This document shows, piece by piece, positions 3,826 through 61,221 of a DNA stretch of 64,000 nt (position 1 is the stretch's first letter; each line of letters opens with the position of its first letter). The notes below the pieces were generated by a model that was not told the origin of the DNA, did not search any database, and saw nothing but the letters and a program-made list of their open reading frames with translations. The DNA comes from an uncultured Acidobacteriota bacterium (lineage in GTDB: Bacteria > Acidobacteriota > Vicinamibacteria > Vicinamibacterales > JAKQTR01), in contig CAWEJS010000002.1 in assembly GCA_963809475.1 (NCBI GenBank), positions 471,722 to 535,721 on the forward strand, given 5' to 3'. Both the position numbers and the translations under genes were made by a program.

Positions 3826-5138
3826 CCTGCCTCCAACCTCTCTGCGGCCGACAAGGACTGCTGCACGCGCAACCCGTCGAGCACCTCGAAGTACCTCGGG
3901 AACGTCTTGGACACACACGAGGGATTCTCGATGGACACACCGGGGACACGAAGGCCCACGAGCGCAAACGCCATCGCCATGCGATGGTCGCCGTACGTGC
4001 GGATGGTGGCCGCGCGCATCTCGCGGCAGGGCTGAATCACGAATCCGTCCGCCCGCTCTTGAACCGCGACGCCGAGTCTCGAGAGTTCCCTGCAGGTCGC
4101 CGACACCCTGTCACATTCCTTGAGACGGGCCGAAGCAATGCCGCGCACCGTGGTCGGCGAGCCGGCGAACGGCGCGACAGCCGCGAGCGTCTGGGCCGTG
4201 TCGGGAATGTCGCCCAGGTCCACATCGACGCCTCGCAACTCCCGCGATCCGGTCACCTGAACCCAGCCGCCGCCTTCCTCGACCCGGCATCCCATGGCCG
4301 ACAGGACGTCCAGAAACTGGATGTCTCCCTGCCGCGAGCCGCGCGAGATCTTCTCGACTCTCACCGTGCCGCCTGCGATGGCGGCCGCGCCGAAGAAATA
4401 GGAGGCGGCCGAAGCGTCGCTCTCGACGTCGAAGACGGGCCGGCCGCGATACCGGCCGCAGGGGACGGCGAAACGCCGATACCCGTCGCGCGCGACTTCG
4501 ATGCCGAAGTCGGCCATGACGGCCAGTGTCATGTCGACGTAGGGCTTCGAGGACAGCGGCCGGCCAACCACCACCTCCACCGGTGACCGCGCGTACGGCG
4601 CAACGAGCAGGAGAGCGCTCACGAACTGGCTGCTCGTGTCCCCGTCAATGGCCGCCCGCCCGCCGGCCAGGCCATTCGCCTGGACCCGGACGGGCGGGCA
4701 GCCCGTCGGACACTCGATGGCGGCGCCGAGTTGTCTCAGGCCGTCGAGGAGATCCCCGATCGGCCGCTCACGCATCCGCGGACTTCCGTCGACCACGAAG
4801 TCGCCAGACCCGAGCGTCGTGAGCGCCACGAGAAAGCGAGCCGCCGTTCCGGCGTTCCCAACGTCAAGCCTGGCGCCGCAAACGGGAATGCGTCCCCCAA
4901 ACCCGTCCACGCCCGTGGTTCCGGCACCGCCTGCGCCGACATTCACGGAGAAACCCAACTGCTCGAGCGACTCGACCATGCGGACCGTGTCGTCGGCCAC
5001 CAACACATTCGTCAGCACCGTCGAACCCTCGGCGAGCGCGGCGACCACCAACGCGCGGTTCGTCAGACTCTTCGAGCCAGGCACGCTGACGGAGGCGCGA
5101 AGGAGATGGCCGACGGGAGCGATCGCGGCGGTGTCCAC
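3822..5138 (-). CDS. aroA: 3-phosphoshikimate 1-carboxyvinyltransferase (EPSP synthase)
   Basis: The LPGSKSLTNRAL-type motif (VPGSKSLTNRALVVAALAEG) is present, and the 438-aa length fits. Confidence 0.95.
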   Translation of the reverse strand: MDTAAIAPVGHLLRASVSVPGSKSLTNRALVVAALAEGSTVLTNVLVADDTVRMVESLEQLGFSVNVGAGGAGTTGVDGFGGRIPVCGARLDVGNAGTAARFLVALTTLGSGDFVVDGSPRMRERPIGDLLDGLRQLGAAIECPTGCPPVRVQANGLAGGRAAIDGDTSSQFVSALLLVAPYARSPVEVVVGRPLSSKPYVDMTLAVMADFGIEVARDGYRRFAVPCGRYRGRPVFDVESDASAASYFFGAAAIAGGTVRVEKISRGSRQGDIQFLDVLSAMGCRVEEGGGWVQVTGSRELRGVDVDLGDIPDTAQTLAAVAPFAGSPTTVRGIASARLKECDRVSATCRELSRLGVAVQERADGFVIQPCREMRAATIRTYGDHRMAMAFALVGLRVPGVSIENPSCVSKTFPRYFEVLDGLRVQQSLSAAERLEAG

Positions 5139-5144
5139 GGCTGA

Positions 5145-6062
5145 TCACGGGCTCCGGCGCATCGAGTTCGAATCGGTGACGCGACGGCGGGCAGCCGCGC
5201 ACATCCGTTCACGCCACATCTGTGCCTCGTCGAAGACCCGCTCGAGCGGAAGCGCGGTGGCGGCGTGCGTCTTCATGTGGTCGAGCGCCCCGATCAACTC
5301 GTCCAGCGCGACGCGGATGTTGTCCGCGTTTGTCAGGCAGATGTCGCGCCAGATCTCGAACGAGCTGTCCGCAAGCCGGGTCGTGTCCACGAGTCCGGGG
5401 CCGGCAAGCTCGAGACCCGCGTCCCCCGCCCCTTCGCCAGCCACGCGCATCAGGGCCGACGCCGCCAGTTGCGGAAGGTGGCTGATGAAGGCCAGGACGC
5501 GGTCGTGCTCGGCTGCACTCATCACGTGCGGCTCGGCGCCGAGCGTCCTCACGAACGCGCACAGCCGCGCCAGGACCTCGGGCGGCGTGCCTCCCTCAGG
5601 CGTGAGCACCCAGGGCCGCGCCGAGAAGAGGTCGGCCGTCGCCGCGTCGATCCCGCGCGAAGCCGCGCCGGCAATCGGATGCCCACCGACGAACGTGAGC
5701 GATCCGCCCGTGCCGCGCGCCGCGTCGACCATGACCCGCTTCGTGCTGCCGACATCGGTCACGATGGTGGCCGGGGAGACGTGACGGGCCACCTGCCTGA
5801 CGAGCTCGACGTTCTGCCGAACGGGCGCCGCCAGGATCACCAGGTCGGCCCTGGCGACGCTGTCGAGTTGCTCCGACGCGACGTCAACGACGCCGCGATC
5901 CAGGGCCGTGCGAAGCACGTCAGCCCGGTCGATCCCGGCAATGGCGGTGGCAGGCCGTGCTCTGCGGATGCCCAGCGCGATCGATCCGCCGACGAGCCCG
6001 AGGCCGACGATGGCAATGCGTTCAAATTCGGCGCCAGCCACGCCCGAGTCGGCTTCACTCAT
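5145..6062 (-). CDS. tyrA: prephenate dehydrogenase
   Basis: An N-terminal Rossmann motif (IAIVGLGLVGGS) and GGHPIAG are present. Operon context supports the call. Confidence 0.85.
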   Translation of the reverse strand: MSEADSGVAGAEFERIAIVGLGLVGGSIALGIRRARPATAIAGIDRADVLRTALDRGVVDVASEQLDSVARADLVILAAPVRQNVELVRQVARHVSPATIVTDVGSTKRVMVDAARGTGGSLTFVGGHPIAGAASRGIDAATADLFSARPWVLTPEGGTPPEVLARLCAFVRTLGAEPHVMSAAEHDRVLAFISHLPQLAASALMRVAGEGAGDAGLELAGPGLVDTTRLADSSFEIWRDICLTNADNIRVALDELIGALDHMKTHAATALPLERVFDEAQMWRERMCAAARRRVTDSNSMRRSP

Positions 6063-42179: not shown

Positions 42180-43124
42180 ATGAGCACGCTCGTCACTCGC
42201 AGCGCGGAGGACCGGCGGCTGAACCAGCGCGCGATGCGCCTGTCGCTGGCCGTCGGCGTCGCGATGCTCGTCGGCAAGGTCGCCGCGTACGTGCTGACCG
42301 GCTCGTCGGCCATTCTCTCCGATGCTCTCGAGTCGGTGATCCACGTGCTGGCGGTCGCGTTCGCGTCCTTCAGCCTGCACCTCAGCGTGAAGCCGGCCGA
42401 CTCGCGGTTCCCGTACGGCTACGAGCGGATCGCGTTCTTCTCGGCCGGCTTCGAGGGCGCCCTGATCATCCTGGCGGCCGCCGCCATCATCTGGACCGCC
42501 GCCTACAAGTGGTCGCACGGCCTCCACATCGAGCGGCTCGGCACCGGCACGCTCCTCGTCCTGGCGGCATCCATCATCAACGGCGCGCTCGGGTGGTACC
42601 TCGTCCGCACCGGCCGCCGCTCGAAGTCGATCATCCTCGAAGCGAACGGCCGGCATGTGCTGACCGACTCCTGGACCAGCCTCGGTGTCGTCGGCGGGCT
42701 CTGCCTGGTGATGCTCACGGGCTGGCTCCCCTTCGACCCGATCCTGGCGATCGCGGTCGCCGTGAACATCCTGTGGTCGGGCGCCCACCTCGTCTGGCGG
42801 TCGGTCAGCGGGCTCATGGACTACACCGATCCCAGCCGGACGACCCGGGTGGAATCGACCATCGAGCCGCTCTCCCGCGACCTGGGATTCAAGCACCACG
42901 GGCTGCGCGTCCGGCATACCGGCCAACGGGTGCTGGTCGAGCTCCATCTGCTCTTCCCGTTTGCCGTGACGCTCGGCGACGCCCACCGGCGGGCGACCGT
43001 CCTCGAACACCACCTGGCTGAGGCGCTCGGGGAGGAGGCCGAGGTGGTCACGCACCTCGAGTCGCTCGAAGACCACGCCGTCGTGCACGACCAGGCACAC
43101 TGGGGTCAGGACGGCTCGGCCTGA
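42180..43124 (+). CDS. cation diffusion facilitator (CDF) family metal efflux transporter
   Basis: The typical CDF layout is present: six TM segments (SAILSDALESVIHV) plus a C-terminal cytoplasmic domain. Confidence 0.85.
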   Translation: MSTLVTRSAEDRRLNQRAMRLSLAVGVAMLVGKVAAYVLTGSSAILSDALESVIHVLAVAFASFSLHLSVKPADSRFPYGYERIAFFSAGFEGALIILAAAAIIWTAAYKWSHGLHIERLGTGTLLVLAASIINGALGWYLVRTGRRSKSIILEANGRHVLTDSWTSLGVVGGLCLVMLTGWLPFDPILAIAVAVNILWSGAHLVWRSVSGLMDYTDPSRTTRVESTIEPLSRDLGFKHHGLRVRHTGQRVLVELHLLFPFAVTLGDAHRRATVLEHHLAEALGEEAEVVTHLESLEDHAVVHDQAHWGQDGSA

Positions 43125-43128
43125 CCCC
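43102..43128 (+). terminator. hairpin GGGGTCAGG-acggctcgg-CCTGACCCC overlapping the CDF stop
   Basis: A 9-bp perfect stem has arms resembling the 1055..1078 hairpin (GGGGTCAG/CTGACCCC). There is no U-run. Confidence 0.4.
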
Positions 43129-43261
43129 GACTCCAAATTCGTCACCGGGTTGACGGAACGGGATGCCGGCCGTCAAACGCCCGCCGGCCGGCTCCGTGGT
43201 GCGCGCTGGCAAGTGGCTTCTGACCATGCACTTGCGCGTGCAAGGCACGCGTCTGGCGAGC

Positions 43262-43277
43262 TGGCAGCCGGCTTGCT
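43262..43277 (+). promoter_or_regulatory. sigma-54-like -24/-12 element TGGCAG-ccggc-TTGCT
   Basis: This is a close match to TGGCAC-N5-TTGCW inside an ORF-free gap. The palindrome TGCAC-N6-GTGCA lies at 43227-43242, and TTGACGG-N13-CCGTCAA lies at 43150-43176 upstream. A chance match is not excluded. Confidence 0.3.
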
Positions 43278-43667
43278 CCTCTACGTGGTGCGAGGAATGC
43301 GCAAGCACTCCAGACCGACGCCCGTGACGTGGTGGCCTCCACGTCGACGGCCCCGGGAGAGGCGGGTCTGACCCGCTCGCCTCTCCCACTCCACATCTCG
43401 TCTCATCCTAGCGAGGTAGCCGGGGGGCACGTGCTCCCCGGCTGCGCCTCTCGAGCGGCAACACCATCGGAGTCATGGTCCATGAGCGAGCGACTCCGCG
43501 TTGCCGAGCCTCGCGGGGCACGGGTCCTGTCCGCGCCGTTCCCATCTGTGCTCGGCTGACCAATCGAATCGTCCGGCGATTTGCCTGCGCGCAGATGGGA
43601 GCCGCCGCGGCCACCCGCTGAGGGGCCATGTGTCCTCGGCGGAGTCGTTGCCGGTAAGGGGTCGCGT

Positions 43668-44924
43668 CTATTCGTATCGCAGCGATTCGATCGGATCGAG
43701 GCGGGAGGCGCGCAGCGCGGGCCAGAGGCCGCTGAGGATCCCGGTCAGCATCAGGATCACGGTCGTCGAGATCAGCACGTCGGGCGTGAGGATGAGGTTG
43801 ATGTCGGTGTCTCCGGTCGGGTCGCCGATGAGGTGCGCGAGGAACGGCCTCCTGCCGGCGGCGTGCACCAGGACCCACGTGAGCGCCATCCCGGCGACGC
43901 CGCCGAACCCCGTGATGACGAGCGCCTCGAGCAGGAACTGCAGCAGGATGTGGCGGCGCCGTGCGCCGAGCGCCTTCCGCACGCCGATCTCCCGCGTGCG
44001 CTCCGTCACCGACACCAGCATGATGTTCATCACGCCGACGCCGCCAATCATGAGCGTCAGCGTCCCGACGAACACGAGCACGAGCTTCAGGCCCATGGTC
44101 ATCCCGCCGAAGATCCGCCGGATCTCGGCACTGTCGTTGATGGACAGGGCGCGATCGTCCCGCGGGTCGAACCGGTGCCGTTCTGCCAGGACGCCCCGCA
44201 CCTGCGTCATGCCCCGCTCGTGGAACGCCGGGGCGATGGTCTGCACGACGATGGTGTCGAGGTAGTCCTGGTGGAAGAGCTGCTCCGTCACCGAGTACGG
44301 GATGAAGACGCTCATCTTGTCGGGCCAGAAGTAGTTCGACAGCTGCGCCTTGTCCGTCAGGACCCCCACCACCTCGAAGGACAGCCCCCGGATCCGGATC
44401 GTCTGCCCGACGGCCGGGCTGTTGCCGAACAGCTTGAGCGCAACCTCGGTGCCCAGGAACGCCACGCGCCGCCGCCGTTCGACGTCCTCGGCGTTGATGA
44501 ACCGCCCGTCCGACGGCGTCTCGGTGCGCATGACGCCGTACTCCGGGGCCACCCCCCGCACGCCGGCCGACGTCGCCCGGCTGCCGTAGCTGAGGGGCAG
44601 CGTCTCGAAGATCTCGGGGCTGACGGACTTCACGAGGCCGAGTTGTTTCAGCGGCTCGATGTCGGCGTACTTGAGGTACACGCGCCGGCCCGCCCGCTCC
44701 CCGCCCGCCTGCATGCTGGTCTGGCCGCCGTAGATCACGGCGACGCCGTCGGAGAACGCGTTGCCGAAGCCGACGAACATCGCCCGGTGGAACCCGTTGC
44801 CGTACGCCATCATCGACGTGACGGTCACGATCCCCCACGCGATGCCGAGCATCGTCAGGCCCGCCCGGAACCGGTGGGCGACGATGGAGTTCCAGGCTTG
44901 GGAAACCGTCTCTCTGAAAAGCAC
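43668..44924 (-). CDS. MacB/FtsX-type ABC transporter permease (paralog 2)
   Basis: The GTG 44924 start gives (M)[30 protein letters not shown], parallel to the paralog 1 N-terminus. A periplasmic domain and a C-terminal FtsX 3-TM bundle follow ([14 protein letters not shown]). Confidence 0.88.
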
Positions 44925-45044: not shown

Positions 45045-46367
45045 CTACGCTTCATAGCGTAACGCTTCGATCGGCGTCAGGCCCGCGGCCCGCCGCGCCG
45101 GGTACGTCGCCGCCGACACGCCGATCAGCGCGAGCGCCGCCACGGCGAACAGCCCGGTCCGCCACGTGACGATCAGCCCGGTGAACCGCTCGGGCATCGG
45201 GGCGAGGTTGACCAGGTCGCACAGCCCCATCCCGATCGCGAAGCCGATGAGCCCGCTCAGGCCCGTGAGCAGCAACCCCTCGGCGAAGAACTGCCACTGG
45301 ATGCGCGCGGCCGTGGCCCCGATGGCCTTCCGCACGCCGATCTCAATCGTGCGCTCCCGCACGGCCACGAGCATGATGTTCATCACGCCGATGCCGCCGA
45401 GGAGCAGCGTGACGATCGCCACCGCCAGGAAGAAATCGTCCATGCCCTCGATCATCTTGTCGAACATGACCGACTCGACGGCGGTGTTCCAGAAGCTGAG
45501 CGCCTCCGCGTCGGCCGGATCGAAGTCGTGGCGCTTCGCCAGGATCTGGCGCACCTCGGATTCGACGGGCCCCCTGGCCTCGAGACCGGCGAAGCTGATG
45601 AGGCCCTTCTCCCGGTCGATCATCTCGCGGATCTGAACCGTCACGTGCGGATACGGCGCGGCGATGATCGTCGAGACGCTGTCCTGGCTGTTCAGCAGCC
45701 CGGGCATCGGAAAGTCCTTGCGCGCCGTCTCGTACGGGATGAACAGCCGCCCGTCGTCCTGGCCGGTGTAGTTCGAGTCCTGCTGCTTCTTGCGGACGCG
45801 TCCGATCACGGTGTACGGCAGCCCGTTCACCGTGACGGCCATGCCCACGGGATCGCGGTCGGCGAACAACTGCTTCGACGCGTCGAACCCGAGCACGGCG
45901 ACGCGCCGGACTTCCTGGCAGTCCTTCTCGTTGATCGGACGTCCCCGGTCGACTTCGATCGTCCGCATGTACTGGTAGATGGGCCACACACCGCTCATCG
46001 ACGTGGCGCTCGAGTTGTAGGCGCTCTTCACCCGCAACCCGCCGCGGAGGATCTCGGGGCTGAAGTACTGCAGCAGCTTCGACTCGGCTTGCAGCGCCCG
46101 CACGTCGTCGAAGGTGAGCCGGATGGCCCGCCCCGCGCGCAGGCCGCCGGCCTGCAGCGATGTGCGGCCGTTCCGGATGATGACGATGTTCTTGCCCAGC
46201 TCCGCGAGGACCTTCTGGTTGCCTCTCGAGAAGCCCTCTCCCAGCGCCGACAGGAGGATGAACGAGATCACGCCCCAGGCGATGCCGAACATCGTGAGGA
46301 ACGAGCGGAGCTTGTTGGCCCGCAGGTTCGCCCACGTCTGCCAGAAGAGGTCCCTGATGAACAGCAT
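45045..46367 (-). CDS. MacB/FtsX-type ABC transporter permease (paralog 1)
   Basis: MLFIRDLFWQTWANLRANKLRSFLTMFGIAWG... shows the MacB-like periplasmic domain, and the FtsX domain carries GVRKAIGATAARI. Confidence 0.88.
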   Translation of the reverse strand: MLFIRDLFWQTWANLRANKLRSFLTMFGIAWGVISFILLSALGEGFSRGNQKVLAELGKNIVIIRNGRTSLQAGGLRAGRAIRLTFDDVRALQAESKLLQYFSPEILRGGLRVKSAYNSSATSMSGVWPIYQYMRTIEVDRGRPINEKDCQEVRRVAVLGFDASKQLFADRDPVGMAVTVNGLPYTVIGRVRKKQQDSNYTGQDDGRLFIPYETARKDFPMPGLLNSQDSVSTIIAAPYPHVTVQIREMIDREKGLISFAGLEARGPVESEVRQILAKRHDFDPADAEALSFWNTAVESVMFDKMIEGMDDFFLAVAIVTLLLGGIGVMNIMLVAVRERTIEIGVRKAIGATAARIQWQFFAEGLLLTGLSGLIGFAIGMGLCDLVNLAPMPERFTGLIVTWRTGLFAVAALALIGVSAATYPARRAAGLTPIEALRYEA

Positions 46368-46411: not shown

Positions 46412-47605
46412 CTACTGCAGCACGACCCGCTGCCCCTCGCTCAGCCCGCTGAGCACCTGCGTCTTCGTGCCGTTGCTCACGCCGACCTTGATGGGCCGCC
46501 GCTCGCGGTGGTTCTTCGCGCCCGGCACGTAGAGGTCCACCGAGGCATTGCGCTTCGTGTCGTACACGATGGCCGCCTCCGGGACGACGAGGGTCCGCTT
46601 GTGCTCCTCGAGGATGATCTCGGCGTTGGTCGTCATGTTGGCGAGGAGCTCGCCCGAGGCGTTGTCAATCGACACCTTGACCTCGAACGAGATCACGTTG
46701 TCCTTGTCGGTGCCCATCGGCGAGATCTGCGTGACCTTGCCGTCGAACTGCTTGTCACGGAAGGTCTCCACCTTGATGCGCGCCGGCTGGTTCAGCCGGA
46801 CCATGCCGATGTCGGCCTCGTCCACGTTGCCCTTCACGTAGACGCGGCTGATGTCGCCGAGCACCATCACGAGCGTCGCGTTCGCCCCGAGGTTCTGGAT
46901 GGACGAAACCGGGCTGCCGAGTTCGACGGGCCGCGAGAGCACCATCCCGTCGATAGGCGATCGGATGGTCGCGTTCGTGAGCTCCTCCTCTGCCCGCTCG
47001 ACGGACGCCTGGGCCGCCGCCACCGACGCCCGCGCCTGCGCCGTCTTCGCCTGGGCGATCCCGAGCTGCGTCTTGGCGGCCTGCTGCCGGTTCGCCGCCA
47101 TCTCGAGGGCGCTGCGGGCGTCGTCCAGGCCCTGCTGCGGCAGCAGCCGGTCGCCGAACAGCTTCTCGGCGCGCTCGAGGTTCCGGCGCGCGAAGGGCAC
47201 GTCGGGCCCCTCGGCTTCGACCTTGTTCTTCTCGAACTCCGCCTCCGCGGCCGTCACCGCCGCCTGCGCGCCGACGAGCGCCGCCCTCGCCTCGCGCAGC
47301 CGCGCCGCCAGGTTGTCCTTGTCCAGTTCGACGAGCACCTGCCCCACGGTCACCCGGTCGCCGACGTCGACCTTCAGTTCTTTGACGATGCCGTTCGCTT
47401 TCGACTTGATCTCGACCTTGGAGATCGGCTCGATGCGGCCCGTGGCTACGACCGATTTGGCCACGTCGCCGCGCTCGATCGCCGCAAGGCGTGCCGGGTC
47501 GATATCGCCACTGGACCCTCGGAGAGCCACCCACGCGGAACTGCTGACGATCAGCAGCGCAACCAGTACCCCCGCCCAGAAAAACCGCTTCTTCGTGATC
47601 TGCAT
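46412..47605 (-). CDS. HlyD/MacA-type membrane fusion (periplasmic adaptor) protein
   Basis: An N-terminal TM segment is followed by biotinyl-lipoyl-like, coiled-coil hairpin (ARLREARAALVGAQAAV...) and beta-barrel segments. Confidence 0.88.
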   Translation of the reverse strand: MQITKKRFFWAGVLVALLIVSSSAWVALRGSSGDIDPARLAAIERGDVAKSVVATGRIEPISKVEIKSKANGIVKELKVDVGDRVTVGQVLVELDKDNLAARLREARAALVGAQAAVTAAEAEFEKNKVEAEGPDVPFARRNLERAEKLFGDRLLPQQGLDDARSALEMAANRQQAAKTQLGIAQAKTAQARASVAAAQASVERAEEELTNATIRSPIDGMVLSRPVELGSPVSSIQNLGANATLVMVLGDISRVYVKGNVDEADIGMVRLNQPARIKVETFRDKQFDGKVTQISPMGTDKDNVISFEVKVSIDNASGELLANMTTNAEIILEEHKRTLVVPEAAIVYDTKRNASVDLYVPGAKNHRERRPIKVGVSNGTKTQVLSGLSEGQRVVLQ

Positions 47606-47813
47606 GTGTCAGGCCCCCACCCGCTTACGCTTTCATACGCACCCGGCCGGAACGCAGTTCCCAGTGTCAACTCATTGACGCTCATGGACCGGCTAGCGGA
47701 CAGACTCGGCGCGGCCGCGTGTTATGATGGGAAATCCTTGGAGTTCAGCCCGCCGGCCGGCGCGAAACGCGCGCCCGGAGCGGGCGTGTAGGGAAAGGAC
47801 GACACGAAGGCAC

Positions 47814-48155
47814 ATGGCAAAGATGACGAAGAAGACCGAGACGACAACCGGTGCGGCCAAGCCGGCCGCGCGACGCAAGACGACCGCCGCCCCGGCGCCC
47901 GAGGCGGAGAAGGCGACGACCCGGCGGCGCACGAAGTCCCAGTTGGAGCCGTCGCAGCCGGTGGCGGCCGCTGACAGCCGGCCCGTGAAGGCTGAACGGC
48001 CCGTGCGCACGGCCTTGCGTCACGAGCCCACCCACGAGGAGATCGCGCTGCGCGCGTATCACCTCTTCCTGCGCCGCCGCGGCTGGCCGGGAAGCCCGGA
48101 ACACGACTGGCTGCAGGCGGTCCACGAACTGCGGAGGGAGCGCGGGCTTCTCTGA
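47814..48155 (+). CDS. DUF2934-type small protein
   Basis: ATG 47814 precedes a low-complexity Lys/Thr/Ala/Pro N-terminus. The C-terminal PTHEEIALRAYHLFLRRRGWPGSPEHDWLQAVHEL matches the DUF2934 pattern I recall. Confidence 0.65.
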   Translation: MAKMTKKTETTTGAAKPAARRKTTAAPAPEAEKATTRRRTKSQLEPSQPVAAADSRPVKAERPVRTALRHEPTHEEIALRAYHLFLRRRGWPGSPEHDWLQAVHELRRERGLL

Positions 48156-48179
48156 TTCCGGATTTGCGTGGTTCGAGCC

Positions 48180-48239
48180 GGGGCCAAGCCCTTTATGGGG
48201 CCTGGCCCTTTTTCACTTTCTGCATAGGGGCCTGGCCCC
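48180..48239. repeat. three tandem copies of a GGGGCC(A/T)(A/G)GCCC(C) hairpin core
   Basis: The copies are GGGGCCAAGCCC (48180-48191), GGGGCCTGGCCC followed by TTTTT (48197-48213), and GGGGCCTGGCCCC (48227-48239). They lie between convergent genes, and the same core occurs at 36395-36407. Confidence 0.7.
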
Positions 48240-48249
48240 ATTTCCGTTT

Positions 48250-50638
48250 TCAGAAGGCGAGGGAGAGCCCGGCGTAGACGTTCCGGCCGGCGGCCGGGAT
48301 GAAGAGCGCCACTCCGCTGTCCACGTAGCCGAACGACGTGTAGCGCCGGTTCAGCAGGTTGTTCATCCGCAGGTCGAGGGCCCAGCGCCCCTTTCCCAGC
48401 ATCCCTGTCACGCGGACCGGCAGCGGCACCTTCGCCGCGGCGTCGACGGTCGTGTAGGAGGGATTCACCCGATCGGCGCGCGCCGTGTTGTCGAGGAAGA
48501 ACCGCCCGGCGTGCCGGAGTGCCATGGAGACCCGGCTCGCGCCGATGTCGGCGTGGGCGGACGCCGACGCCATCACGTCGGGGAACCCGGCCACGCGGTT
48601 CCCGTCGTAGACGGCCGTGCCGCCCTCGAAGTCGTGCTCCCGGTAGCGGACGAAGGTGTTCCGCGCGACGGACAGCGCCGCGTCCAGGCCGATCCGGGCC
48701 GGGAGGCTGACGCTGCCGTCGAACTCCAGGCCGCGGCGCCGGGACCGCGCGCCGTTGCCGTACACCGGCACGCCGTTGTCGTCGAGCGCGCCGGCGTAGA
48801 CGATCTCGTTGCGGAAGTCCATCCAGAACGCATTGGCGCGCAGGCGCCATCTCTTGCGCCGCCACGAGGTCCCCGCCTCGAGGTTCCACACGTCTTCGGG
48901 ATCGAGGATGGCCGGGGCCGTCGCATAGTAGTCCTGCGGATCGTAGAGGTTCCGGAAGAACGGCTCGCGCATGCCGCGGGCCGCGGTGGCGTAGGCGTCG
49001 CCGCCCGCGCCGAGCTTCACCACGACGCCGGCGCGCGGCAGCACGAAGCCGTAGGACCTCGTGAAGGCGACGCCCCTCAACCGGTCCTCGGACATCTCGT
49101 AGGTATGTCGCGAGAGCTGCAGCCCGGCGCTCAGCGTCACGCGTGGCGAAGCCGCCACCCGCGCCGACACGGCCCCGGTGGCGGTGTGCTTGGCCACCCG
49201 GTAGTCGTAGTAGCGGTGGTCCGGTTCGACGCCCGCCGGGTAGTACTGGGCCCAGGTGACCTCGCCGACGTGGTGCGCCCGGTGGAGGCGCCACTCCCCC
49301 GTCACGTCGAGGCCCACGCGCCCGAACTGCCGCGTCCACGACGGCACCCAGCCGGCGTCCCACTCGTCGACGTTCCGGCGCCGCACGAGGTCGCTGCGCG
49401 CAATCGCCGCGCCGTCGGAGCCCCGTGCATCGGGCAGGTCGTACTCGAAGAGCCAGCGCTGCCCGCGGAACTGGTCGTAGTACCCCGACCCCTGGAACGC
49501 GTAGATCGTCTGGCTGAACGTCGACTGATCGGAGAGCCTGACGTCGTGGACGAGCTGGTAGTGCGGCTGGAAGAAGTGGTCGGTCTCGCCGGGCCAGGAG
49601 ATCGGGTTCGTGCGCCGATCGCGACTGGCGTCGCCGGTGAGGCCCCCGTTCAGGGTCTCGCGATCGATGCCGCTGTACGCAAGGTGCGTCCGCTCGGGCC
49701 CGCCGAAGAACACCGCCCGCACGCGCGACCGCTCTCCGAACCGCGCCAGTGACACGTAGTAGTTCCACATGTCGGCCCACGACTGGTCGCGGTAGCCGTC
49801 GGTCGTCAGCCGCGAGTAGCGGGCCGAAAGGGCCCACGCGCCGTGCAGGAGACCGGACTCCCAGACGAGCGACAGCCGGCGCGTGCCGAACGACCCCGCG
49901 CCCGTCTGCATCGAGAACGCCGGCTGCACGGACGGCTGCGCGGTCGTGAAGTCGAGGGCGCCGCCGAGGCCCGAGAGCCCCGTCACGCCGCGTTGCACCT
50001 GCACGTCGCCCGTGGTGGCCAGGAAGTCGGCGAGGTCGATGAAGAACAGCTCGCCCGACTCGGCGTCGTTGAGCGGCGCGGCGTTCAGCATCACGCGGGT
50101 GCGGGCCTGGCCGAACCCCCGAATCGAGAAGTACGAGTAGCCGATGCCGTTGCCGCTGTCGTTCGTCGCGAACACGCCGGGCACGAGCTGCGCCAGCAGC
50201 ATTGCGGGATCCTGGCCCCAGTGCGCGTCGCTGATGGCCTGCCGCGGCACGTTCGAGAACGTCGCGGCGTCCGCCCCCTCGCGGGCGCGGCCGGCCGTCA
50301 CTTCGATGCGGTCGGACACGGTGACGATTGGCGCCAGGCGCACGTCGAGCTGGGTGCCCGGCCGATCGACCACGGCCCGCTGAACGTAGTAGCCGGGGCT
50401 ACGAGACGACCAGCGTCACGCTCCCCGCGGGGCCGGCATCGACGGCAAAGCGTCCGTCGCCGTCCGCGACGACCGACGTTCCGCGATCGGGAATCTCGAC
50501 ACGCGCGGCAACGGGCGCGCCGGTTTCGGCATCGACGATCCGCCCGGTGATGGTCAGGGTCTGCGCCGCGCCCGGGACGACCAGGGCGGGCATGGCAGCG
50601 AGGAAGGCCGCGACGAACAGGAGGCGCGCGAGTTTCAT
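48250..50638 (-). pseudogene. TonB-dependent outer-membrane receptor with N-terminal CarboxypepD_reg-like domain, apparent frameshift near 50399
   Basis: ORF 50399..50638 encodes a signal peptide plus TITGRIVDAETGAPV...SVTLVVS-stop. After a 1-nt shift the text continues SPGYYVQRAVVDRPGTQLDV... into the 707-aa plug plus barrel ORF, which ends ...YAGLSLAF. The large ORF has no signal peptide of its own. Confidence 0.75.
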
Positions 50639-50756
50639 CGTTCCCTACGCCGGTGTGACCCGGATCAGGTTCAAAGGGTGTGATCTCAGCCCCGCGTTGT
50701 GCGGGACACCCCTACGACTGTGGCTGGATGTACTGTGACCCAGGCGCGCGCCGCGG

Positions 50757-51185
50757 TCAAGAGCGGTGCGACTGGAGCAGCAGGACCGGCACCTTCAGCA
50801 GGTGCCGCACCTTGTCCGCGGTGGCCCCGAGGATGATGTCCTTCACGAGGCGGTGGCCGTGGGTGGCCATCGCCACGAGGTCGGCGTGCTCGGAGTCGGC
50901 CGCGCGGACGATCTCGGTGGCCGGGTCGCCCTTGGCGAGGCGCGCCTCCACGGCGTAGCCGTCCGCGGCGAGGCCCGCGCGCAACCCGTCGAGATACTCC
51001 CGATCCTCCTGGATCTCCTTCGACTCGCGCAGCGCGAGTTCGTCATAGGCCCGGGCCGCCCACCCGTCCGCGACGTGCAGCAGCACCAGCGTCGCGCCGC
51101 ACATCTTCGCCAGGGGCTTCACGTGCTCGATGATCGTGCCGTCGGCGTCCGAGTGTTCCACCGCCACCAGGATCCGCTTGTACAT
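50757..51185 (-). CDS. universal stress protein (UspA family)
   Basis: The internal ATG 51185 gives MYKRILVAVEHSD...LVAMATHGH...GATADKVRHLLKVPVLLL. It lies 5 nt downstream of the mntH stop. Confidence 0.85.
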   Translation of the reverse strand: MYKRILVAVEHSDADGTIIEHVKPLAKMCGATLVLLHVADGWAARAYDELALRESKEIQEDREYLDGLRAGLAADGYAVEARLAKGDPATEIVRAADSEHADLVAMATHGHRLVKDIILGATADKVRHLLKVPVLLLQSHRS

Positions 51186-51190
51186 CGTCG

Positions 51191-61088: not shown

Positions 61089-61221
61089 CGGGCAGGACCC
61101 GCGTACCGGCGCGCGCCCACGCGGGTGACGGCGGCGCTTTCCATCTGGCCGCAGGCATATCAGCGTCAGTTCAGCCGAGCACAGATGGAAACGTCGCCGG
61201 CAGGACCCGCGCACCGGCGCG

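Follow-up and report, generated by a model that had tools for sequence, protein, structure and literature searches.

Sigma-54-dependent small RNA (sRNA) genes are known from Proteobacteria and Myxococcus. In Proteobacteria, GlmY is a decoy for RapZ and CrcZ for Hfq/Crc, NrsZ is processed, and the genes of these RNAs adjoin an activator gene. The Pxr sRNA of Myxococcus is reported to be sigma-54-dependent and controls development. The Qrr sRNAs of Vibrio are about 100 nt long and multi-copy, and qrr1 adjoins luxO. Qrr1-5, which depend on LuxO and sigma-54, are stand-alone genes whose products act on target ribosome-binding sites (PMC13501541). The Cuckoo/CcsR/alpha-r14 (NfeR1) RNAs of Alphaproteobacteria contain repeated CCUCC-type anti-Shine-Dalgarno (anti-SD) motifs, and pairing of these motifs with ribosome-binding sites has been proposed (PMC4615179; PMC10746234). 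Here a predicted sRNA gene of this kind is described in a 64,000-nt stretch of DNA from an uncultured Acidobacteriota bacterium (contig CAWEJS010000002.1, positions 471,722 to 535,721; the whole stretch is called the window, and its G+C content is 68.6%). It lies in the gap between two convergent genes, which encode a cation efflux (CDF) transporter and an FtsX-type permease. This gap very probably contains a real structured RNA gene. The region 43141-43450 (+) is read here as a gene that is probably dependent on sigma-54 and an enhancer-binding protein and probably encodes a trans-acting sRNA. Its predicted parts are as follows.

43141..43154, no strand assigned: upstream activator-type site 1, GTCACCGGGTTGAC (GTCA-N6-TGAC), centre at about -139.5 from the predicted start
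43172..43185, no strand assigned: upstream activator-type site 2, GTCAAACGCCCGCC, centre at about -108.5; consensus GTCAg-N5-CGAC
43227..43242, no strand assigned: middle element between enhancer and promoter; family cACTTa.G.G, window GCACTTGCGCG
43262-43277, + strand: sigma-54-type -24/-12 promoter TGGCAG-N5-TTGCT, conserved upstream of the RNA
43287..43450, + strand: predicted small RNA of about 160 nt; covariance-model match of 158.1 bits, E 1e-30
43294..43311, + strand: hairpin P1, GGAAUGC-GCAA-GCACUCC, with a GNRA-type tetraloop and covariation
43320..43351, + strand: hairpin P2, apical loop UGGCCU; block GUGGUGGCCUCCAC nearly invariant
43355..43387, + strand: hairpin P3, 13 bp, invariant heptaloop CUGACCC and conserved 3' strand GCCUCUCC
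43388..43417, + strand: unpaired linker, G-poor and pyrimidine-rich, with CCUCC repeats in most homologues
43418..43443, + strand: hairpin P4, AGCCGGGGGGC-ACGU-GCUCCCCGGCU, a GC-rich terminator-like stem

Homologous loci were gathered by two independent routes. The first started from close homologues of the permease with their contigs, and gave the window, L001, L081/82, L083-86, L089, L090-94 and L118. The second was a context-blind scan of metagenome contigs with the DNA pattern GGTGGCCTCC-N23-30-CTGACCC-N3-6-CCTCYCC, which returned 23 loci (21 true homologues and two chance matches inside coding sequence). The set comprises 35 loci with 24 distinct sequences, and 25 distinct versions when L118 is included. 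These loci come from Acidobacteriota metagenome-assembled genomes (MAGs) and metagenomes, probably within Vicinamibacterales. The best genome match of the window permease is a MAG at 79% identity (L001), and Vicinamibacterales MAGs come next at 65%; Vicinamibacterales is also among the names of the matching protein clusters. In L001, the order Nramp - HlyD - permease 1 - permease 2 - gap - GH20 is syntenic to that of the window apart from the missing CDF gene, and the gap carries the same TGGCAG-N5-TTGC plus the block GTGGTGGCCTCCAC-N22-GGTCTGACCC-N4-GCCTCTCC. In all the contigs with closer permease homologues (70-93% identity), permease 2 is followed by a gap of at least 360 bp, and the same module of putative promoter and RNA was found wherever the DNA was long enough. 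Conservation is limited to the left 60% of the gap. In closer relatives, the RNA core (P1-P3) has 82-91% identity to the window and is as conserved as the permease coding DNA (80-86%), while the spacer around the core is unalignable. In 79 more distant Acidobacteriota loci (permease at most 65% identical), neither a sigma-54 motif 3' of the permease nor a covariance-model match was found. The RNA family is thus restricted to a clade, or it is located elsewhere in those genomes.

The promoter assignment was based on GG and GC 10 bp apart, with the consensus TGGCAC-N5-TTGCW, directly 5' of the RNA. Such an element is present in 24/24 distinct homologues plus L118, and its flanks are unconserved. 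All 35 loci have TGG-N8-TTGC at 44-55 nt 5' of the conserved RNA block. In the ungapped information profile of 24 sequences, the information is about zero over the preceding 20 nt and near maximal on TGGCAG.CCG.TTGC. It returns to about zero over a spacer of about 10 nt, which is variable, and then rises at the predicted +1 (GGUGCGAGGA..., 43287). By itself, the sigma-54 motif does not reach significance in the window (2 matches with no more than 1 mismatch versus 1.12 expected), while conservation of the putative promoter in 24 distinct homologues is far beyond chance. By this conservation, the sRNA gene is probably sigma-54-dependent. A scan of 42900-43900 for sigma-70 promoter and intrinsic-terminator consensus sequences found nothing. 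An earlier sequence-only reading of the window had named TGGCAG-N5-TTGCT as a sigma-54-like promoter with a transcription start near 43288. Consistently, the -24/-12 element is invariant across the homologues, and conservation restarts at 43287-43288, where the predicted start lies.

Two palindromic GTCA-N6-YGAC sites lie in the range where upstream enhancers of sigma-54 sRNA genes are expected (about 80-150 bp upstream). Across the 24 aligned upstream regions, site 1 is conserved, with the consensus tttcGTCAccggG.tGACg, and the right half of site 2 is degenerate in the window copy. The two sites are spaced by 31 bp (three helical turns), and this spacing is held across the homologues, with the joint consensus tttcGTCAccggG.tGACg - N15-17 - cGTCAg-N5-CGaCgc. 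An enhancer-binding protein would occupy both sites. Their positions (about -140 and -108) and the three-turn spacing are like those of the classic NtrC enhancer of glnAp2, but the site sequence GTCA-N6-TGAC differs from the NtrC consensus. The repeat TTGACGG-N13-CCGTCAA (43150-43176), pointed out from the sequence alone, is present, but the conserved units are the two palindromes, of which this repeat represents the inner halves. The palindrome TGCAC-N6-GTGCA (43227-43242), also pointed out before, was only partly borne out. It exists in the window and encloses the middle element, but it is lost in most homologues, and what is conserved is CACTT..G.G. The middle element is possibly the site of a DNA-bending protein or of a second regulator.

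The window RNA (162 nt) folds with -90.5 kcal/mol and z = -4.6, and 0/200 shuffles were as good. The fold of the reverse strand has z = -2.8. On a plain MAFFT alignment, RNAalifold recovered P2 and P3, with compensatory changes in 8/19 pairs. When the five-helix structure was placed on the unfitted MAFFT alignment, 87.2% of the cells were paired, versus 45-50% in slid controls, in which the pairing partners were shifted by 1-3 columns. Changes on both sides were observed in 16 pairs (43 cells) versus 7-12 pairs (8-19 cells) in the slid controls, and 0/500 shuffles reached the observed pairing values. After realignment to the covariance model R1, which favours the structure, 92.5% of the cells were paired (slid controls, 43-52%) and 27/40 pairs were compensatory. 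All five helices show covariation, including the terminator-like P4. The alignment of the syntenic gap, which had been proposed as a check, thus revealed strong covariation. The covariance model scored 79-166 bits on the forward strand of the homologues and at most 37 bits on the reverse strand. Moreover, the frequent G-U pairs in P3 would become A-C mismatches on the opposite strand, so the strand is fixed. Only a single copy was found in the window (43287-43450), even with the filters off. A pseudoknot between CAGACC at the P1/P2 junction and GGUCUG in P3, which had been seen by eye, was dropped, because its U-to-C and A-to-U changes are uncompensated.

The predicted 5' end of the RNA was placed from the promoter geometry and the onset of conservation, and the 3' end would be near 43445-43450, just past P4. 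In P1, 95% of the cells are paired and 5/6 pairs have changes on both sides. Most homologues have GAAA, GCAA or GCGA as its loop, and three to six divergent homologues have another 5' hairpin. The covarying pairs of P2 include CG/GC (13/8) and CG/UA (13/7). The P2 loop is also invariant in the loci that were reached through the permease protein rather than the DNA pattern. P3 has compensatory changes in 7/13 pairs, for example AU 18 / GC 5. The linker is conserved in composition and not in sequence (pyrimidines 63-92%, G 0-22%). It has at least one CCUCC in 19/24 homologues, with up to four, and CUCC or CCUC in all of them. A further CCUCC straddles the loop and stem of P2 (GGCCUCCAC). In P4, 11/11 pairs are changed on both sides across the homologues, and 92% of the cells are paired. 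The palindrome that had been noted at 43420-43441 is real but is not the complete stem, which extends over 43418-43443. In compact loci, 6-10 nt lie between the end of P4 and the permease stop codon, and P4 possibly serves both convergent transcription units. Like sigma-54 sRNA genes, this element is non-coding and has a conserved structure and a terminator-like hairpin of its own, in which the U tract is absent.

Several homologues have variant forms of the RNA. In L001, L096 and L102, the sequence GCUGACAGU... stands in place of hairpin P1 (GGAAUGC-GNRA-GCACUCC), and the distance from promoter to P2 is 44 nt versus 53-55 nt in the others. L090 and L107 have a shortened 5' variant. P1 is replaced or shortened in these subgroups, so the 5' domain is the variable module of the RNA family. 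The most divergent homologue is L118 (contig ERZ25039554:contig_10148, 6232-6371, - strand), in which the permease is 70% identical. Its promoter is cGGCAG-N5-TTGC, its P2 loop is short of one G (U-GCCU), and it has no terminator hairpin. The CU-rich tail of the L118 RNA abuts the permease stop codon, and the predicted transcript would overlap the 3' end of the permease gene in antisense.

Rfam 15 was searched with a gathering-threshold scan of the window and with E-value scans of the gap and eight homologous loci. For the predicted RNA only noise was observed, such as sub-threshold microRNA-type matches of 14-24 bits versus the required 32-160 bits. The Rfam search that the sequence-only reading had called for thus connected it with no known family in the window, the gap or the eight loci. 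By these searches the predicted RNA belongs to no described Rfam family (Qrr, GlmY/GlmZ, CrcZ, Pxr, Acido-1, 6S etc.). Literature searches returned neither an acidobacterial sigma-54 sRNA nor any account of an RNA like this one from Acidobacteria. It appears to be a new RNA family, restricted as far as sampled to one clade of Acidobacteriota, with a single copy that stays at the 3' end of a MacB-type efflux operon. This operon, the gene on the other side of the gap and a short open reading frame (ORF) in the gap are listed below.

42180-43124, + strand: Cation_efflux/ZT_dimer (CDF transporter) gene, an ORF ending in TGA
43297-43371, + strand: 24-codon Trp-Trp ORF, MRKHSRPTPVTWWPPRRRPRERRV
43668-44924, - strand: permease 2 (MacB_PCD/FtsX), an ORF ending in TAG, last gene of the operon
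45045-46367, - strand: permease 1 (MacB_PCD/FtsX), middle gene of the HlyD - FtsX - FtsX operon
46412-47605, - strand: HlyD gene (hlyD), first gene of the HlyD - FtsX - FtsX operon, ATG at 47605

The gap (43125-43667) is located between the stop codons of the convergent CDF (+) and permease 2 (-) genes, with the CDF stop TGA at 43124 and the permease 2 stop TAG at 43668, exactly as first delimited. All the motifs that had been described in it were found at their coordinates, including the hairpin 43355-43387 and the palindrome 43420-43441. The window had been called tightly packed, which is roughly true, but other gaps of several hundred bases exist (e.g. 47606-48249 and 50416-51190). In all informative loci the RNA gene and the permease gene are convergent, whatever the other neighbour of the RNA gene. 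On the far side, this neighbour is the CDF gene, GH20, a gene of the MST/DinB family or asparagine synthase. No + strand gene lies 3' of the RNA, so a leader or riboswitch is rejected; wherever the DNA extends far enough, the next feature is the opposite-strand permease gene. The adjacent operon was found to contain no conserved sequence complementary to the invariant loops.

Comparison of the loci shows the conservation of the putative promoter, enhancer and RNA, as well as the structure, the strand, the single copy and the fixed position by the HlyD-FtsX-FtsX operon. The use of sigma-54, transcription itself, the exact RNA ends, trans action by anti-SD pairing and the targets are inferred. 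A sigma-54-dependent sRNA was among the options of the sequence-only reading, and it agrees well with the -24/-12 element, the upstream repeats, the covarying hairpins, the terminator-like hairpin and the lack of a downstream gene. In the proposed mechanism, an enhancer-binding protein that is not encoded in the 64-kb window would bind the tandem GTCA-N6-YGAC sites near -140 and -108 and would switch on sigma-54 RNA polymerase at TGGCAG-N5-TTGC. Transcription would run from about 43287-43288 to about 43443-43450, past the GC-rich hairpin. The product of about 160 nt would fold into P1 (GNRA), P2 (UGGCCU) and P3 (CUGACCC), followed by the unstructured CCUCC-rich pyrimidine tract. This tract would pair in trans with the purine-rich ribosome-binding sites of target mRNAs, and the signal sensed by the activator would be converted into post-transcriptional repression. 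Because the linker CCUCC is the anti-SD core, as in cuckoo/CcsR/NfeR1, a trans-acting translational repressor is favoured. This specific mode, repression through anti-SD pairing, is put forward only tentatively.

Several points weigh against this interpretation. A six-frame search of the window and the fetched loci for the motifs GAFTGA, Walker A/B, ELFG and RpoN box revealed no rpoN or activator gene, and its only matches were Walker A motifs of ABC ATPases. The check for rpoN and nearby enhancer-binding-protein genes that had been proposed thus detected neither in these sequences, and sigma-54 use has to be read from promoter conservation alone. Known sigma-54 sRNA genes often adjoin an activator gene, and the window gene does not. 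The clade is narrow and synteny is mostly kept, so conservation and operon linkage could partly reflect shared ancestry. In the 21 pattern-derived loci, the blocks GGTGGCCTCC, CTGACCC and CCTCYCC are invariant by ascertainment; they are also invariant in the permease-anchored loci, except for one deleted G in L118. The window linker is the most degenerate copy, with no CCUCC and ACUCC only. P4 has no U tract, and a simple terminator scan was negative. In addition, the proposed mechanism assigns no role to the invariant loops UGGCCU and CUGACCC. On the other hand, sigma-54 and its activators are near-universal in diderm bacteria with lipopolysaccharide (PMC3162934).

Four other explanations were considered. 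A decayed protein gene, for example that of a MacB-type ATPase, or a small protein encoded by the 24-codon ORF is suggested by the several mechanical ORFs of 48-113 aa in the gap and by the absence of an ATPase gene next to the HlyD-FtsX-FtsX operon. Long ORFs are common in such G+C-rich DNA, however, and the G+C content by codon phase is flat (0.62-0.80) over about 43140-43620, whereas the flanking genes reach about 0.93-1.00 in one phase. Seven gap ORFs had no Pfam match at E<=1. The 24-codon ORF, whose two Trp codons had drawn attention, is not kept: its AUG at 43297 is AUU in many homologues, and indels of 1-2 nt shift the frame. Substitutions follow base-pairing rather than codon periodicity. 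The gap has no coding signal, and a small protein gene or a pseudogene is rejected. The earlier view that the gap has no protein-like ORF was correct in substance, and the decayed gene that it had kept as an option is effectively refuted. A second explanation is a regulatory or structural DNA element, or a promoter serving something else, with no stable RNA. Although the upstream part (43141-43277) looks clearly like protein-binding DNA, the compensatory changes maintain Watson-Crick and G-U pairs on just one of the strands, which points to selection at the RNA level. Conservation also starts at the predicted +1, and the promoter has no downstream gene to serve. An element acting purely as DNA is very improbable.

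The other two explanations accept the RNA but give it another role. The transcript may act in cis on the efflux operon, through convergent interference or as an antisense to the 3' end of the permease mRNA, with P4 being mainly a shared bidirectional terminator. The RNA gene indeed faces permease 2 even where the other neighbour has changed, P4 ends very close to the permease stop codon in several loci (6-10 nt), and in L118, which lacks P4 and has its CU tail at the stop codon, the transcript would run antisense into the gene. In contrast, a strong hairpin separates the RNA from the permease gene in most lineages, and an additional 165-300 nt of spacer is present in the window and L083/L112. 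Three covarying hairpins with invariant loops would be needless for mere interference, and a conserved loop complement is absent from the operon mRNA. Action in cis is unlikely. Alternatively, the structured RNA may bind a protein or ligand as a decoy, sponge or scaffold, in which case the C-rich, G-poor tract would serve for Rho loading or protein binding instead of as a seed. Invariance such as that of the loops UGGCCU and CUGACCC and of the block GUGGUGGCCUCCAC is more typically seen in recognition surfaces than in seeds, the linker conserves just its composition, and P4 without a U tract is compatible with factor-dependent termination. However, the RNA is unlike any Rfam family, protein-binding sRNAs included, repeated GGA-type motifs are absent, and the CCUCC repeats are specific to the anti-SD core rather than generically C-rich. 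A protein- or ligand-binding role is regarded as quite improbable.

The remainder of the gap lies outside the RNA family.

43451..43667, no strand assigned: remainder of the gap, with no similarity at this position in homologous loci
43456-43506, no strand assigned: nested hairpin, lineage-specific; z = -2.5 (+ strand) and -1.6 (- strand)
43514-43620, + strand: dispersed repeat of about 105 nt, a long imperfect hairpin that recurs at 61121-61216 (-)

The nested hairpin and the remaining ~220 bp, previously counted among the possible parts of the RNA, are not included in it, as the predicted RNA ends near 43445-43450 and this region is unconserved. The second copy of the dispersed repeat (61121-61216, - strand) is also in a gap between convergent genes, and the two window copies are 74% identical. 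In another genome (L095, about 1420-1593), the repeat has an insertion of about 87 nt at its centre. Its core is GCGGGTCCTG.CCGCG.CGTTCCCATCTGTGCTCGGCTGA ... TGCCTGCG..CAGATGGGAAGCGCCGC..CACCCGC, and the repeat has no match in Rfam. It looks like a REP/MITE-like element, or it may be a multi-copy RNA, and it accounts for the unusual length of the window gap. Gaps in other loci also have repeats. The L083 gap (5070-5643) contains several GGACCCCGGCCTTCGCCGGGGTGACGC-like hairpins on both sides of the sRNA gene. The L090-L093 gaps (5258-6004) contain tandem GGGCTACGTACAAACGGTCC units, with different copy numbers in L090 and L092, as well as GGGGGTT repeats.

The neighbourhood of the RNA gene varies among lineages. 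GH20 and the sRNA locus are separated by the CDF gene in the window, L083, L098, L099, L112 and L113, and this gene is absent in other lineages (L001, L081, L089, L106 and L115 were compared with the window). This insertion or deletion is directly 5' of the sRNA enhancer, which is intact. On the other side, a motif GGAAC-N17-CGTA/CGTC (window 47661-47636, - strand) lies about 30 nt 5' of the hlyD start and is kept in 10/10 loci (the window, L001, L083, L089, L090, L098, L099, L102, L106 and L112). It looks like an ECF-sigma-type promoter of the HlyD-FtsX-FtsX operon. With the ECF-like promoter of hlyD and the sigma-54-type promoter of the sRNA, two different alternative sigma factors are apparently in use. 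The only other GTCA-N6-TGAC in the 64-kb window is at 47666-47679, directly 5' of the ECF-like hlyD promoter. A regulator common to the sRNA and the pump operon was considered and rejected, since this site is absent at that position in nine other loci. The site at 47666-47679 is probably due to chance.

The HlyD - FtsX - FtsX operon has no adjoining ABC ATPase gene in the window or any homologous locus. The ABC_tran genes that come nearest, located beyond GH20 in L081 and others, carry twin ATPase motifs of the sugar-importer type. A TPP riboswitch (50625-50723, - strand, 72 bits) lies 5' of a TonB-dependent receptor gene (48250-50415, - strand). The segment with this receptor gene is apparently missing from L001, in which the alignment before HlyD is limited to window 51185-50802.

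Acidobacteria are among the most abundant bacteria of soil and sediment, and few of them are genetically tractable. To our knowledge, almost nothing is known about their RNA regulators. The locus provides a cleanly delimited predicted sRNA gene with tandem enhancer sites, a -24/-12 promoter, a start and a terminator, and it yields a usable covariance model. It offers no new principle but a testable entry point to riboregulation in a poorly studied and abundant phylum. The RNA and the MacB-type efflux operon are unseparated in the sampled lineages, and the RNA could be a functional partner of the operon, although this is doubtful. A signal from the sigma-54 activator would then set pump output or envelope-related translation by way of the RNA as an anti-SD mimic of rRNA, of its convergent transcription, or of both. 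If true, it would give Acidobacteria their first riboregulator with a defined input and output, and two alternative sigma-factor circuits would be linked.

The wiring from sigma-54 to sRNA of Proteobacteria and Myxococcus probably extends to Acidobacteria. Like Qrr1-5, the predicted gene has a -24/-12 promoter with an upstream site of the NtrC-family type, and several hairpins followed by a terminator. Unlike them, it is single-copy, encodes an RNA of about 160 nt in another phylum, has no activator gene nearby and has no Rfam match. It shares the sigma-54-type promoter and tandem upstream activator sites with GlmY (GlrR), CrcZ (CbrB) and NrsZ (NtrC), whereas the RNA itself has no homology to them by Rfam. 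Pxr is also a multi-hairpin RNA with a -24/-12 promoter, and its host is a high-GC soil bacterium rich in enhancer-binding proteins, but it belongs to another phylum and has no detectable similarity. Repeated CCUCC is shared with cuckoo/CcsR/NfeR1, and this resemblance concerns the presumed mode of action only. Cuckoo RNAs carry CCUCCUCCC in the loop of each of 2-4 modular, adjacent hairpins and have RpoHI/HII-type promoters. In the window family, the loops are GNRA, UGGCCU and CUGACCC, CCUCC is in the single-stranded linker (partly in the P2 loop and stem), the promoter is of the sigma-54 type, and there is no Rfam match. Acido-1 and Acido-Lenti-1 gave no match in the gap (E<=10) or in the eight loci (E<=1), so the predicted RNA forms a separate family. 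Like these two, it is a structured non-coding RNA of the same phylum that was found by comparative genomics.

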